From a virus (taxonomy: Duplodnaviria; Heunggongvirae; Uroviricota; Caudoviricetes), in the IMG/VR virus record IMGVR_UViG_3300033463_000003: 64,000 bases of DNA; one strand, written 5' to 3'. The translations under genes were made by a program, and so were the position numbers. The number at the start of each line of letters is the position of its first letter. Position 1 is the first letter of the stretch. This document shows, in pieces, positions 5,952 through 11,392 of the stretch. The notes under the pieces are model-generated. The model had not been told where the DNA came from and made no database searches. It saw only the letters and a program-made list of their open reading frames with translations.

Positions 5952-6392
5952 ATGAAAAGATTAACACCAGAAGAAATAAAATTTGTAAAAGAAACTAAAT
6001 TTACTCCAACAGTTTATCAATGTGATCAATATTATTTAACTTCATTTGATGACTACACTGACGCTGCTAAAGTTGCTAAAGAGAAGTATGGTGTAGATTT
6101 AGATAAATTTATTGCTAAGAATATTGCAGCAAGTTTAAATGATGCTGATGCCATTTCTTTAGATTATGTTGCTATTTATTTATTATATAGCTTCTTCACA
6201 AAAGATGAACTTGAAAAAATGACACCTAAAGAAGCTCTTAGCTGGCTTATGGAGTATAGATATTATTTCGGGTTTAGAAAATGGGCTGAACAAGATGCAG
6301 CTAATGCTATTTATGATGCTATTGCTATTTATGATGGTGCTGCAGAGTTCTATGATCAGCCAGATGGAAATGTTTGGTGTCGTGAAAAATAA
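5952..6392 (+). CDS. Hypothetical protein
   Basis: ATG 5952 after AAGGGG SD; 146 aa. Confidence 0.75.
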   Translation: MKRLTPEEIKFVKETKFTPTVYQCDQYYLTSFDDYTDAAKVAKEKYGVDLDKFIAKNIAASLNDADAISLDYVAIYLLYSFFTKDELEKMTPKEALSWLMEYRYYFGFRKWAEQDAANAIYDAIAIYDGAAEFYDQPDGNVWCREK

Positions 6393-6474
6393 TTTTTTTT
6401 GAAAAATTTTAAAATTTATTAGCTAAAATAATAATCAGCAGGAAAAAATAAATTTTCTGCTGTATAATATATAG

Positions 6475-8325
6475 CTAGTTACGCAGAAATGCGTTTCTAT
6501 ATATAAGATATATTAAGGCCAGACCCGACATGTTGAAATATCTAGGATGAGGTCGCCAATACAGCCTTAATATATATCCGGACTTATAGCCAGTAAGCCA
6601 TATGACTAGACATGAGCTTACTCTTGAAAAGGCACAACGGGGTTTGGCAAGTAATATCCACAACTAGTTATTAAAACTTGCTGGGCAAAAATAAGCATAA
6701 GTCCATTAACAACGAGGGCACGTTGTAAAATAACGAGTTTAGCCGAGTCTTATAGACGGTATGGAGTCTGATATAAACCCATGCAACCCACATTCTTTAT
6801 AGGAGGTATGGAACGCTAGAATAAATACTTTGGGATCTAGCTTATCTGGCCGGCCCAATGGTTAGTTTGGGGTGCAACTCCTCAACTGGTCTCAAAACAC
6901 CCATGCAGCAGTAACCAGGGTGAATACTAGAACGTCAAAACGTGAAAGAGCCTGCTGCATTTAGAGAGTCGGAGTATTTACCGGCTGCGGGTTCGCCCGC
7001 TTCTTATTAGAGCTTAAAAAGCACTTGCACCATTATGAACTTCCGAGAAAGCAGAAGGTGAAGCTGACGAAAAGCCTAAGCGTCTATAAATAAAGTTTAT
7101 TGGTAAATTTATGAAAACATAGGGTACTCACACCGAATGTTTCTTGCAGCAATGCGCTTAACTGGTGGGTTGGGGTTAAAGTTGTCTACCAATGTGAGAA
7201 AAACAACTGCTCCCTTGGCTAATTTAGTCCGGTAGGGAGATAATATAAGTTTAGGTGGCCCAGGAGGTATTTATTATTCCCCTCTCCCCAGAAACATAGT
7301 GAGGTCACCAGCCTATAATCAGGTATAGCAATGGCACCTGGATGCTATTATCAAATAGCATAACTTACGAGGCCGCTTTATGCCGCCGCCCTATTGAGTT
7401 TCAACTCTGATAGGTCCAGAGGACGCCGAACGAAAGTTCTACTCCCGAAGAGACGACCTAAGCATGTCCTTAAACTGCTTATTATAGAAGGAAAACTATA
7501 CAACCCGTATGCACCCACTACTACGTTAATAAATGGGTATATTTATTTCCCGGTCCCTTAACGGCAGTTTCCAGTTTCTGTGAAACTAAATAATATAAGG
7601 ACTGCAGGCAAATGAAGCAATTCACACTACCTGCTTATTAGTTCCACCACCTGGTACTGAATGTTGTTTGATAGTGAGCTGTGGTCAATATAAAAATATT
7701 GCAAGAGAAAGACGGCATAACAGCAATAACACAAAATAATCCGTCTCTCATTAATATGTGTGTATCTATCAAGTAAGTGGACTACCTCAGCCTATTAAAC
7801 GTCAGTTTAGCCTAAAGCTATTAATTAATAGGTAATTAACCAAGATTAAAATTGCGAAAACACTTATAGAAATATAAGCTACTTGGTATAGAGAGTGATA
7901 AAGCCAGGGAACTCCAGCCGTTATGGTTGCAAGGAGGGTTGAGCCTCCCGTCTGTTAATCGAAAAAGCCGGACTTCGCTAGTCTTGACGTTAAAGAACAT
8001 CGATTCCGTTATAGTGTCTGGTAAAACTACAAAGAGAGCACAGGAGTTATACGTCGATAGCCCATTTAGAGCGTTTGTGGGAATTGGGTAAGAAACTAAC
8101 CGTGGAAATGTGCAGAGTCGGTGAAAACGTATATCCCAAGGCAATGTAAGAATTATAGTAGGCCAGCCTGGCTGTTGATCATAGTTCTCGGGTAACGTTG
8201 TCCCTGTTCACAATGTCTTGTACTAACATTGTTTTTCTAATAAAATATAATAGGATTTATATCCATGGCGATAAATCGTAAATCCTGGTTGCCTTCAAGT
8301 CCGAAATGACGTTAAACTATGGAGG
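6475..8325 (+). ncRNA. ~1.85 kb ORF-free block of structured RNA(s)
   Basis: Follows promoter at 6461; visibly more GC-rich than flanking genes; many closed helices (e.g. ATATTAAGGC/GCCTTAATAT, GGACTTAT/ATAAGTCC, ATGCAGCAG/CTGCTGCAT, AGCCAGG/CCTGGCT). Confidence 0.65.
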
Positions 8326-8331
8326 TATAGA

Positions 8332-8562
8332 ATGTTAGGATTTACACTTTATGGAACAACAGATGTTCCACATGAATATTACGTTTATGCTGATGGTGTA
8401 GATTGTAAACCAGCTTACTTCTTAACTAGAAAAGAAGCCGAAATCTACATGAATAATTATGCTTCTTCACATGGTATTCAATTAGAATGCACTGAATGTG
8501 ATAAGCATGAGCGTAAATATTCTAATCATAAGGGTGTTAGATTTTATATTAATAGAATTTAA
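8332..8562 (+). CDS. Hypothetical protein
   Basis: 76 aa, GGAGGT SD. Confidence 0.75.
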   Translation: MLGFTLYGTTDVPHEYYVYADGVDCKPAYFLTRKEAEIYMNNYASSHGIQLECTECDKHERKYSNHKGVRFYINRI

Positions 8563-8701
8563 TGCCCTTAACAATTCATTTATAATTAGAAGAGATTCTA
8601 AATAATATTTACCTGAGCAGTACGACTTATGCCTGAAACCTGATATAAAGGAATCTTGGGTATGTCAGAAACAACTGACTATGACATAAGCAAAAAGGGC
8701 G

Positions 8702-8776
8702 GAAACTATACTTATTTCTTCAGTGCTTTAGAACAAATGATCTAAAAAGAAATAGGCTGCAAGTTAGTTAGTTCAA
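8702..8776 (+). ncRNA. Bulged-stem element copy 3 (covariant)
   Basis: GA-AACTA-TACTTATTTCT ... AGT-TAGTT-CAA. Confidence 0.65.
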
Positions 8777-8868
8777 ATATTATTTAGAATCTTTTTTATT
8801 TTTTTATTTACTTTTAAAATTTTTATTGTATAATATTAATGTGGATGAAAACTGAAAGGATCCACAAT

Positions 8869-8925
8869 AGAGCCGATACTTATTTCTGGTTATTTATAAG
8901 AATGTGTTAAAAACAGTTCGGCCAA
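8869..8925 (+). ncRNA. Bulged-stem element copy 4, in the leader of the 9004 gene
   Basis: GA-GCCGA-TACTTATTTCT ... AGT-TCGGC-CAA, ~35 nt after promoter 8827. Confidence 0.7.
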
Positions 8926-8930
8926 GTAAT

Positions 8931-8992
8931 TAAACAGCTTTTAATGTGTTAATACTTGGGGTAACTAGCATATTAAAGGCTGTTTATTTTTT
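8931..8992 (+). terminator. Long hairpin plus T-tract (possible attenuator) before the 9004 SD
   Basis: TAAACAGCTTTTAATGTG...CATATTAAAGGCTGTTTA-TTTTTT. Confidence 0.55.
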
Positions 8993-9003
8993 CGGAGGTC
9001 ATT

Positions 9004-10977
9004 ATGACAAACATTCAAAAAATCTTAATTTCTAGACATTACTTACTTGCAGCTCCAATTGCTGAAGAAGATAAAGTAAAAGTTGCATATTATAATGCAT
9101 ATCTTTTAGCTAACTTTGGTATTGTAGTTGATAAGCCACAACGTTTAAGCGATATTAGCGTTAAAGAAATTGCTGATGTTTATAAGCTTAGTGTTCCAGC
9201 ATCTTTCTACAAAAACCCACAAGATACTAAATATTTTTCTTGTGCAGAATTACTTATTGAACAATTAGTTTCTTACTTTTTAGTTGAAACTGGCACAGGT
9301 ATCTATAATAGAGTCGAGATCTTTGAAAAGAATCTCCCTGAATATAAGCAAGGTGATGAACTTAAACTTCGTGAGTTCAAGATTTTAACTGCAGAAGAAG
9401 CTGATGTTGTTTTAGCTGATATTGCTAAAGCATACTGTGCTTATACTCGCCCATGGGCTCTTGATGAAGAAGAAGAATTTATCTGGTTATTTGAACATGG
9501 TTATTATCAAAACTTTGAAGTCGCATGTGGTGATAATGCTATTAAATTACTTGAAAAAGATGCTTCTTTTGCACGCTTTTTATTCAAAAAAGATTTAGTT
9601 AAGATTTCAGTTACTCGCTGCGGTGAAAAATCTAAACTTATGCTTGATGCTAAAACAGCTGACCTTATTAGAGCAGCTATTCCTTATGTTAAGGATTGCC
9701 CAATGTCTAAAAAGCAAGCTAAGTATTTTAATACTTTAATTGCTAAAGTTGGTGCACAAGGCAAAGTTAAAGAAGCCTCTAATGCTCGTTCACCATATAA
9801 AGCAGCTCAAGAAGCCCTTAATAAAGGTGATGTTTTAGGTGCAGCTAAGATTTATGCAGCTAATGGTTCTCTTTTAGAAAGAAACTTAAAGATGCTTATT
9901 TCAAGAGCTGACCCACAAACAGCTTTAGATATTTTAGGCTTACTTAAAGCTAAAAATCCACTTGTTCTTTTCCAAATTATGTCCACATTAATGGCTGATA
10001 ATGGGGAAGCTCGTACCTTTACATTTACTAAAAATAGATTAGTCAAACATCATATTGAAACTGAATATGAACATACTTGGCGTAAATCTAAGTTAAATGA
10101 TGCCACAAGAAAGCTTATTCATGATGCTTGCCTTGTTAAAATTGAAGAGGGCTATCGTGCCTTTGATTCTTTAGGCAAAGTCTATATTTCACCAGATTTC
10201 TTCAAGATTGGTGTCCCAGTTAATACATCAGCTACTGGTAAAGGTATTGATGTATTACCAACAAGCTCTAGACTTCCACTTCCAACAAATAAAGTTCGTA
10301 CTTTCGTTTATTGGAAAGATGCATTTGATATTGATGCTTCCTTAATTTTTGTTGATAATGTTGGCAAATTAAGCTACATGTATTTCGGCAACTATTCTGG
10401 AAAACCATTTGGTCATGATGTCCTATTTTCTGGCGATAATAGAAATCATACTGGCTCTGAATATTATGATATTGATGTTGAAGCTCTTCATAGAAGAGGC
10501 ATTAGATATGTAATTCAAGCTTTCCATGGCTTCTGCTCTAATTTAAACCAAGGCGAAATTTATTGTGGTTATCAAAATAAAGAAAACTTTAATACACAAG
10601 CCTGGGACCCAAAAAACATTGAATTAAAAATTCATGTTAAGGGTGATACAAGAGCATTTATGGCTTTTGCCTTAGATTTAGCAACTAATGAAGTTGTTAT
10701 CTTAAATCAACTTTTAGACGAAGAATTAAGAGTTGTTAACGGTAAGAACTTTGCTCCAATTGCTAAGTTACTTGACCCAGCTCAACTTGAATTAAATGCT
10801 GGCTTAATTGCTTCATTTAGAGCAAGTGAAGTTGTTGCTACACCAGAAGAAGCTGATGTTGTATTTGATGCTAATTTCAAACCAGAAATAGCTGAAGATG
10901 GCACTGCAATTCAAAAAGTTGTTAGACCATTTGAAGTTGAAAAGATTGTTGCATTAGCTAATGGTGCAAATATTTAA
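9004..10977 (+). CDS. Large helical-repeat protein with C-terminal TerD-like domain (putative TROVE/Ro-like RNA-binding protein)
   Basis: C-terminal RTFVYW..FDIDASL, FSGD, GSEYYDID motifs typical of TerD-like domains; TROVE-likeness of the N-terminus is inference. Confidence 0.65.
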   Translation: MTNIQKILISRHYLLAAPIAEEDKVKVAYYNAYLLANFGIVVDKPQRLSDISVKEIADVYKLSVPASFYKNPQDTKYFSCAELLIEQLVSYFLVETGTGIYNRVEIFEKNLPEYKQGDELKLREFKILTAEEADVVLADIAKAYCAYTRPWALDEEEEFIWLFEHGYYQNFEVACGDNAIKLLEKDASFARFLFKKDLVKISVTRCGEKSKLMLDAKTADLIRAAIPYVKDCPMSKKQAKYFNTLIAKVGAQGKVKEASNARSPYKAAQEALNKGDVLGAAKIYAANGSLLERNLKMLISRADPQTALDILGLLKAKNPLVLFQIMSTLMADNGEARTFTFTKNRLVKHHIETEYEHTWRKSKLNDATRKLIHDACLVKIEEGYRAFDSLGKVYISPDFFKIGVPVNTSATGKGIDVLPTSSRLPLPTNKVRTFVYWKDAFDIDASLIFVDNVGKLSYMYFGNYSGKPFGHDVLFSGDNRNHTGSEYYDIDVEALHRRGIRYVIQAFHGFCSNLNQGEIYCGYQNKENFNTQAWDPKNIELKIHVKGDTRAFMAFALDLATNEVVILNQLLDEELRVVNGKNFAPIAKLLDPAQLELNAGLIASFRASEVVATPEEADVVFDANFKPEIAEDGTAIQKVVRPFEVEKIVALANGANI

Positions 10978-11050
10978 TCGGCTTTAAAAAATTATTATAA
11001 AAGTAGCATTAATTTGCTACTTTTTATTTTAAAAAGCTGTATATTATATT

Positions 11051-11392
11051 ATGAGTAGAGTAAAAACACAGAACACAGATCATTCATATATACGTGCTGC
11101 TGAACGTTGTGGTTGGAGCAAAAAGAAAGCTCGTGAAATGATGCGTTTAGCTTCCCGCTATGGTACTGCTGCTGGTAATTTACAACCAGGACCTGTCAAA
11201 GATTTTATTACTGCAAGGCAAGAGTGTACCCATAGACGTATTAAATTATATCAAGGCTATGTTTTTGTATTTGCTTCTACTAGTACCAAATGTATTACTG
11301 TCTATCCGTTAGAAATAGGTAAAGAACTACAAGAAACTGAAGAAAAACAGTTAACAGAAATTGAAAAAATTGAAGCTATGTTAAGGCTATAA
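11051..11392 (+). CDS. Hypothetical protein (possibly leaderless)
   Basis: 113 aa; ATG immediately after TGTATATTAT, no SD. Confidence 0.7.
   Translation: MSRVKTQNTDHSYIRAAERCGWSKKKAREMMRLASRYGTAAGNLQPGPVKDFITARQECTHRRIKLYQGYVFVFASTSTKCITVYPLEIGKELQETEEKQLTEIEKIEAMLRL

Follow-up and report, generated by a model that had tools for sequence, protein, structure and literature searches.

A putative non-coding operon of separate structured-RNA modules near the tRNA genes of a phage-like contig

The DNA analyzed here, 64,000 nucleotides (nt) of the IMG/VR virus record IMGVR_UViG_3300033463_000003 (the window), is an AT-rich, phage-like contig (GC content ∼0.32) with every gene on the + strand. Eleven tRNA genes, found with ARAGORN and Rfam, occupy its 5' end (positions 1-2683). 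They are followed by genes for a Thg1-like protein, a DUF5662 protein, and a methyltransferase, then by a block free of open reading frames (ORFs), a 76-amino acid ORF, a 657-amino acid ORF, and a kinase-phosphatase-RNA-ligase fusion. The ORF-free block (∼6475-8240) has a GC content of 0.38-0.50 versus ∼0.30 in its flanks, and positions 6400-8330 hold no long frame under translation tables 11 or 4 or with TAG or TAA read as glutamine. The final fifth of this block (7838-8232, 395 nt), the subject of this study, had been proposed in an initial annotation to be one large, ornate non-coding RNA. Its non-coding nature stands, as no frame opens there under any of these codes. We propose, however, that the stretch is probably the 3' end of a ∼1.8-kb non-coding operon of separate structured-RNA modules, which are shuffled in relatives.

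The beginning of the block is preceded by an extended -10 promoter motif, TGTATAAT (6461-6468, + strand), which lies outside the flagged stretch and is given here for context. This motif occurs 19 times in the window versus 7.2 ± 2.5 expected copies. Its + strand copies sit just 5' of genes or blocks, and the next copy after 6461 is found at 8827. The copy at 6461 probably starts the block 6475-8238. Contig Ga0265301_10000295 from JGI sample 3300028797 is identical to the window over 6400-8340, and the protein of a neighboring gene is also encoded on a 273-kb contig, indicating that the window probably stems from a jumbo phage.

When the block was compared by blastn and nhmmer with INPHARED phages and with the loci that flank homologues of the neighboring genes, nothing was returned, because the modules are located elsewhere in the genomes of relatives. 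When whole contigs of relatives were searched, pieces of the block were found to recur in three related phage contigs, in other places and in another order. The three contigs yielded a 22-nt invariant motif (GTTCCACCACCYRGTACTGAAT), and exact-match scans with it led to eight IMG/VR and 42 metagenome loci. A scan with a 3' domain only (see below) added five further loci with variant 5' strands. The comparison set comprises ∼45 related metagenomic and viral loci. The search motif, part of a strand termed S1 below, had no match among genomes representing each prokaryote species once and thus gave no host or prophage lead. The neighboring proteins (146/154 and 76 amino acids), used as anchors, led to nothing beyond an identical contig (L019) or relatives with a different context.

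The comparison resolves a conserved structured RNA, which we call X, at 7641-7950 on the + strand. Only its last 113 nt (7838-7950, the 3' third) lie inside the flagged stretch. At least 35 distinct copies of X, ranging from ∼95 to ∼430 nt, were found on IMG/VR and JGI/ENA metagenome contigs. They share the 5' strand S1, a strand AGUNAGUGGACU, the strand S4 (AAAGCYRGGGAACUCCAG), and two terminal hairpins, of which the final one has the loop GUUGNG. The arms between these strands vary from nothing to >100 nt, and the shortest copies (L063 and L084) measure ∼95 nt. S1 (GTTCCACCACC YR GTACTGAAT GTTGT, 7641-7667) is invariant, and UCCACCAC is retained even in the five copies for which only the 3' domain served as query. 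S4 (AAAGCCAGGGAACTCCAG, 7900-7917, + strand) is near-invariant and is kept in all copies, including ∼30 with neither of the two modules that follow X in the window. In total, ∼60 near-invariant nucleotides of X lie in junction strands between freely varying arms, as is typical of ribozymes and ligand-binding RNAs. With a model of its 3' domain, X is detected once in the window and once in G007.

The arms of X, all on the + strand, are supported by covariation. Arm V1 (7668-7772) is closed by TTGATAG (7668-7674) and CTATCAA (7766-7772). In 29 distinct copies its positions 1-6 are canonical in 93-100%, with up to six pair types. Arm V2 (7791-7832) has the closing helix CCTATTAA/TTAATAGG (7791/7825), of which positions 1-6 are canonical in all of 18 distinct copies (100%), position 6 through five pair types. 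Arm V3 (7839-7887) is the helix ACCAAG/CTTGGT (7839/7882). Its positions 1-3 are canonical in 100% and position 4 in 90% of 21 distinct copies, and positions 3 and 4 show three to five pair types (CG/AU/UG and AU/GC/CG/UA/GU, respectively). Hairpin V4 (CAGCC/GGTTG, 7915-7929; 7915/7925) is canonical at positions 1-4 in 94-100% of 35 copies. Hairpin V5 (GGAGG/CCTCC, 7933-7948; 7933/7944), with the conserved loop GTTGAG, forms the 3' end of X. All five positions are canonical in 97-100% of 36 copies, with up to six pair types, whereas positions 6-8 beyond the stem, which serve as an internal control, are canonical in only 17-47%. In a 24-sequence alignment of the 3' domain (A9), 94.6% of the cells of V4 and V5 are paired (78.3 ± 1.6 in shuffled alignments; 0/500 reach the observed value), and 43 cells carry double changes (12.2 in shuffles; 0/500). 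V4 itself is 100% paired on this alignment, with double changes at two of its pairs.

Two core pairings of X (+ strand) are likely but less clean. Helix P1*, which is tentative, joins CCTGG (7650-7654) to CCAGG (7904-7908), in general form CCYRG (7650) with CNNGG (7904). The pair Y12-b is canonical in 34/35 copies (CG 20, UG 9, and UA 5), and the pair R13-a is GC in 10, GU in 5, AU in 3, and A.C in 16 of the 35. Helix P2', below V1, joins TACTGA (7655-7660) to TAAGTG (7774-7779), in general form UACUNA/UNAGUG. Its fifth pair is G-C in 11 copies, G.U in 3, A-U in 1, and G.A in 17, and it is C-G in L086. A closing helix GUUCC/GGAAC predicted from the minimum free energy (MFE) fold was rejected, as the S1 variants GGUCC, CUCCC, and UCUCC are uncompensated in S4.

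L032 and L084, the latter within a complete 31.8-kb genome (G016), each carry X on its own, flanked by a promoter and a rho-independent terminator. In L084 (∼10900-11200, reverse-strand coordinates) the minimal X belongs to a group of two or more neighboring small RNA genes that each have a TGGTATAAT promoter and a GC-rich terminator of their own. In another locus (L036), a match to the abiF RNA motif (RF03085; 6712-6748, - strand; 36.8 bits versus a gathering threshold of 37) lies 17 nt 5' of a short X variant, and a GIY-YIG-type ORF follows this variant ∼500 nt downstream.

Directly after X lies a second conserved structured RNA, Y (7950-8131, 182 nt, + strand), defined by alignment and covariation. 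Its five copies (the window, L040, L061, L045, and G004/L037) align over 182-185 nt, and RNAalifold predicts eight helices. These include AATCGA (7957)/TCGATT (8000), TAGT (8012)/ACTA (8026), CCCA (8061)/TGGG (8078), CCG (8100)/CGG (8119), and a long-range closing helix TACGT (8050)/ACGTA (8127), all on the + strand. The closing helix covaries (CACGU/ACGUG and CAGGU/ACCUG in relatives). The helix at 7957/8000, which the initial annotation had already listed, is likewise genuine and appears as AGUCGA/UCGACU and UAUCGA/UCGAUA in relatives, with AU to GC and AU to UA double changes. Overall, the 33 pairs of Y are 95.2% paired, and 15/33 show compensatory changes. Shuffled alignments give 7.1 ± 1.8 double changes (0/500 reach 15), and slid partners give 0-2. 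No frame is conserved in Y on either strand, and its variable sites (28/26/29 by codon position) have no 3-periodicity. A covariance model of Y found no sixth copy in 540 kb including the ∼45 X loci, and X therefore does not require Y as a partner.

The third module, T, is an extended hairpin (8135-8195, + strand) composed of CCCAAG/CTCGGG, AGAATTAT/ATAGTTCT, and the apical stem GCCAG (8162)/CTGGC (8168). It is found in the window, in L040 (after Y), and in L050 (directly after X, without Y). The apical stem reads GACAA/TTGTC in L050 and AAC.A/T.GTT in L040 (4/5 paired), so that three pairs carry double changes, and the second stem AGAATTAT/ATAGTTCT has the counterpart AGATTAG/CTAATCT. T is followed by an intrinsic-terminator-type hairpin (8210-8238, + strand) with a 7-base pair stem (ACAATGT, 9 nt, ACATTGT) and the tail TTTTTCT. 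A consensus terminator scan omits this hairpin because its stem contains fewer than three G-C pairs. An analogous AT-rich hairpin followed by T6 is found after the T module of L050. The hairpin at 8210-8238 is the probable 3' end of the operon.

The position of this hairpin just upstream of the 76-amino acid ORF at 8332 might suggest a role of the flagged stretch as a cis-regulatory leader of that ORF, either a riboswitch or an attenuator, as it lies directly 5' of it and ends in a terminator-like structure. Alternatively, it could be a decayed or antisense gene, since a 102-amino acid ORF is open on the - strand (7836-8144). We consider this reading extremely unlikely in either form. The modules recur in unrelated contexts, either amid tRNAs or provided with a promoter and terminator of their own, and a promoter-like site (8223-8251) separates the terminator from the ORF. 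The - strand frame does not stay open in L061, L045, and G004, the variable sites of Y show the even codon distribution given above, the G.U pairs fit the + strand only, and there is no Pfam match.

The modules also bear on the single ∼400-nt ornate RNA (7838-8232) envisaged initially, which was to be closed by nested long-range helices (7902/8167 and 7910/8043). All 12 strings on which this model was built are present at the positions given: AGCCAGG (7902) and CCTGGCT (8167), AACTCC (7910) and GGAGTT (8043), AATCGA (7957) and TCGATT (8000), TGGGA (8078) and TCCCA (8134), ACCAAG (7839) and CTTGGT (7882), and ACAATGT (8210) and ACATTGT (8226). In its favor, the complementary strings exist, and X, Y, and T are contiguous in the window and in L040. 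As a set, however, the complementary strings are no more than chance. The stretch contains 14 complementary 6-mers (17.4 ± 5.3 in dinucleotide shuffles), three 7-mers (4.25 ± 2.7), and no 8-mers (1.0), and its MFE z scores are +0.34 on the + strand and -0.45 on the - strand. The coordinates split X and fuse its remainder with Y, T, and the terminator. The flagged stretch is therefore composite, with a left edge that cuts X, because the 5' two-thirds of X with the conserved 5' strands (7641-7837) lie outside. The boundary toward the adjoining stretch 6475-7830 thus runs midway through a single RNA.

Three of the proposed long-range pairings have no support, since they connect modules that can occur apart in relatives, and every 3' strand has a conserved partner close by. 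S4, which carries both AGCCAGG and AACTCC, is invariant in ∼30 copies of X without Y and T. The 7902/8167 pairing decays from 7/7 Watson-Crick pairs in the window to four Watson-Crick pairs, two GU pairs, and one mismatch in L050, and to two Watson-Crick pairs, three GU pairs, and two mismatches in L040. Helix P1* gives AGCCAGG a partner inside X, and CCTGGCT, which like TCCCA is contained in T, pairs locally with GCCAG. In the 7910/8043 pairing, GGAGTT changes to GGTGCT in L045 and to GGAGCT in G004, where X and Y lie apart, with no compensation in X. TGGGA pairs with the local GCCCA (8060) in 5/5 copies of Y, and TCCCA disappears with T where a tRNA follows Y. Of the two flanking hairpins, ACCAAG/CTTGGT is sound and corresponds to helix V3 of X, whereas ACAATGT/ACATTGT is a weak terminator-type stem. 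A single RNA of this extent is thus very unlikely. What holds of the initial proposal is that a genuinely structured RNA occurs near a tRNA array (in the window, 5 kb downstream of it).

The order of the modules changes from phage to phage. X is directly followed by Y only in the window and in L040, both of which have all three modules in one contiguous run with no spacers. In L061 and L045, Y precedes X by 2-3 kb, and in G004 the order is Y, tRNA-Arg, 3 nt, and X, so that X begins 3 nt past the CCA of the tRNA. In L073, a tRNA starts 8 nt after the end of X, and in three of the five Y-bearing phages (L061, L045, and G004) the spacer from Y to a tRNA is 6-9 nt. Among 43 distinct X-bearing sources, 116/116 tRNAs found by ARAGORN lie on the strand of X and none on the opposite strand. 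This places the modules on the tRNA strand within or beside phage tRNA clusters, the setting of the RNAs RNAC and RNAD of phage T4. Sequence comparison indicates that the modules are conserved as units while their neighbors change, with compensated helices around invariant unpaired strands. It likewise indicates that they are always on the tRNA strand and are often either 3-9 nt from tRNAs or equipped with their own promoter and terminator.

This arrangement could also mean that X, Y, T, and the modules upstream are domains of one modular RNA or assembly, joined in cis or in trans, comparable with GOLLD or with an RNA-only multimer. GOLLD and ROOL occur near phage tRNA islands; the 5' region of GOLLD is variable, and its linker sometimes contains tRNAs (PMC12286853). 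Furthermore, the modules share one operon in the window, AACUCC of X and GGAGUU of Y are complementary in 3/5 Y-bearing phages, and the apex of T is near-palindromic. However, X is found with neither Y nor T in the majority of long loci, as well as in complete genomes (L032/G020, L084/G016, L039, and L053), Y is 2-3 kb away from X in L061 and L045 as described above, no covariation is seen between modules, and there is no GOLLD or ROOL signal even at E ≤ 10. We regard such an assembly as unlikely.

Known RNA families were searched with cmscan and Rfam 15, in the window at the gathering threshold, in 6300-9100 at E ≤ 10, and in seven related loci at E ≤ 1. ROOL, GOLLD (including its conserved 3' half), OLE, and RNase P RNA (bacterial A and B, and archaeal) gave zero matches at any of these settings. 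Transfer-messenger RNA (tmRNA) was found neither by ARAGORN in the window nor by Rfam in the block. Indeed, no Rfam 15 family matches the block or the tested copies at these thresholds, which answers the question of ROOL, GOLLD, OLE, RNase P, and tmRNA negatively and agrees with the initial view that the stretch belongs to none of them. AAAGCCGGGGAACUCC has what we take to be a loose resemblance to CR-I of RNase P; the minimal X of ∼95 nt is too small for any RNase P RNA. Resemblances to RNase P, T-box, tRNA-like, and hammerhead RNAs were considered, and no model match supports any of them. We found no description of equivalent RNAs in the literature, and X and Y (and T) are real, apparently undescribed phage RNA families.

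We therefore favor the reading of the flagged stretch as the last 113 nt of X, the whole of Y, T, and the terminator, at the probable 3' end of an operon of separate RNA modules. The transcription unit would begin with the TGTATAAT promoter at 6461, end with the terminator at 8238, and lie between the tRNA array with its RNA-repair genes and the next protein genes. From its transcript, discrete stable RNAs would be excised. In relatives whose modules are flanked by tRNAs, cleavage by RNase P at the 5' end of the downstream tRNA and 3' trimming of the upstream tRNA would set the ends, in the way in which RNAC and RNAD are released from the tRNA region of T4. The mature RNAs would then act in trans.

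Several observations weigh against this reading. The window has no tRNA between X, Y, and T, and here the three may stay joined as an RNA of ∼600 nt or longer. The hairpin at 8210-8238 is weak (ΔG -4.5 kcal/mol, z -1.4), and the MFE z scores of X (-1.2) and Y (+1.6) give no thermodynamic signal. T rests on three sequences. The invariance of S1 is in part a matter of ascertainment, because S1 supplied the search motif, and both P1* (A.C in 16/35) and P2' (G.A in 17/33) contain many non-canonical cells. Transcription, processing, and stability of the modules are all inferred from sequence. Moreover, the 3' domain model does not find X in the complete relatives G002 and G003, and no recurrent protein partner of X emerged, since each family is limited to at most five of ∼40 loci and lacks a Pfam or PHROG annotation. 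The link to tRNA metabolism is hence one of neighborhood only.

As to function, it is possible, if tentative, that X and Y act by binding a specific partner, be it an RNA or a protein of the host or phage, connected with the takeover of tRNAs or translation. This suggestion is based on the invariant junction strands, the fixed association with tRNA islands, and the Thg1-like, Pnkp-RNA-ligase, and methyltransferase neighbors. It is doubtful, although conceivable, that X represents a new, widespread class of phage RNA with a catalytic or recognition core acting on tRNAs or the translation apparatus, for example on tRNA-Leu through its 5' strand, with Y as a second class.

A more specific version holds that X is an antisense or tRNA-binding RNA whose 5' strand GUUCCACCAC pairs with the D-arm region GUGGUGGAAU of class II tRNA-Leu and would sequester, mark, or protect it. 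The motif GGTGGTGGAA (up to one mismatch) occurs nine times in the window versus 1.26 expected, including positions 6-15 of both tRNA-Leu genes. There (1658-1667 and 2516-2525), (A/G)UGGUGGAA is complementary to the 5' strand of X (7642-7650). Among 254 distinct tRNAs of all loci, the D-arm 7-mer is confined to tRNA-Leu (6/30), and in two phages Y is followed by tRNA-Leu. On the other hand, most tRNA-Leu genes lack the motif, folding of the tRNA buries the D-arm, and the G-rich + strand inflates such counts. No tRNA with such a D-arm is found in G016, G017, and G020, three complete or near-complete X-bearing genomes, and phage-encoded tRNA-Leu was rejected as the target of S1 on this ground. 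We judge pairing of X with tRNA-Leu to be quite unlikely.

Further non-coding segments lie upstream of X in the block. Positions 6595-6959 and 7005-7409 are 90 and 82% identical to 1501-1862 and 138-533 of L024, a contig of G001 in which their order is reversed and the promoter region 6403-6501 is 80% conserved. They are probably further RNA cassettes of the same kind. A short module beginning with GGTCCAGAGGA (7405-7446; 8436-8477 in L039) lies ∼200 nt upstream of X in the window and directly after X in G005, and is another shuffled unit. A 30-nt direct repeat with 77% identity (6802-6831 and 8321-8350) corresponds to the ribosome-binding site and start region of the 76-amino acid ORF (GGAGGTAT.GAA...), with a copy inside the non-coding block, and may be due to chance. 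The 657-amino acid protein (9004-10977) has its sole match in PHROG 33734 (function unknown). It is found with 52-65% identity in 16 viral contigs, mostly beside a tRNA array.

The arrays of relatives contain Rfam tRNA matches that span 134-196 nt over the full 71-position model (L003 8623-8774, 9848-9981, 10484-10679, and 10898-11057; L014 9594-9742; L007 12038-12197), which implies insertions of 60-120 nt, possibly introns. In the tRNA array of G004, away from X and Y, the - strand of L037 (2538-2607) gives a weak match to YrlA (33.8 bits versus a gathering threshold of 69, E = 7.6e-4).

In T4, expression and processing of RNAC and RNAD have been shown, and both are presumably freed by the tRNA-processing machinery. 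These stable RNAs of the T4 tRNA region (species 1 and 2) still have no known function (PMC9697503). Like the modules, they are small non-coding RNAs that share their strand with the tRNAs of a phage tRNA cluster, within or next to which they are encoded. X, in contrast, exceeds them in size and varies far more in length (95-430 nt), and the modules are known here from sequence only. The bacterial Y RNA-like YrlA is modular as well, with conserved strands and variable arms, and is sometimes phage-borne and linked to tRNA-like elements. However, X, Y, and T have no YrlA match, and no Ro/TROVE gene was seen nearby.

In kind, ROOL and GOLLD come nearest to the modules among described RNAs. Both often lie near phage tRNA islands, and their function is unknown (PMC12286853). 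Similar to X and Y, ROOL is a structured RNA of phages and prophages in metagenomes, often beside tRNA islands, and has no known protein partner (PMC12286853). X and Y differ from it in giving no cmscan match and in being 2-6 times smaller, and multimerization is nowhere indicated here. GOLLD shares with the modules the proximity to phage tRNA islands and a modular build of a conserved and a variable part, sometimes with tRNAs in the linker (PMC12286853). Again there is no cmscan match, and the modules occur independently of each other, which is undescribed for the halves of GOLLD.

Phage tRNA islands thus already harbor enigmatic RNAs (T4 RNAC and RNAD, ROOL, and GOLLD), none with an assigned function. 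X (at least 35 copies) and Y (five copies) add at least two covariation-supported families to them, with T as a third module. The 95-nt X of L063 and L084 is small enough for biochemistry and structure determination and more tractable than ornate RNAs of 600-800 nt. In the phages compared here, the tRNA-island RNAs behave as independent cassettes that are shuffled between tRNA genes, some of them with their own promoter and terminator.

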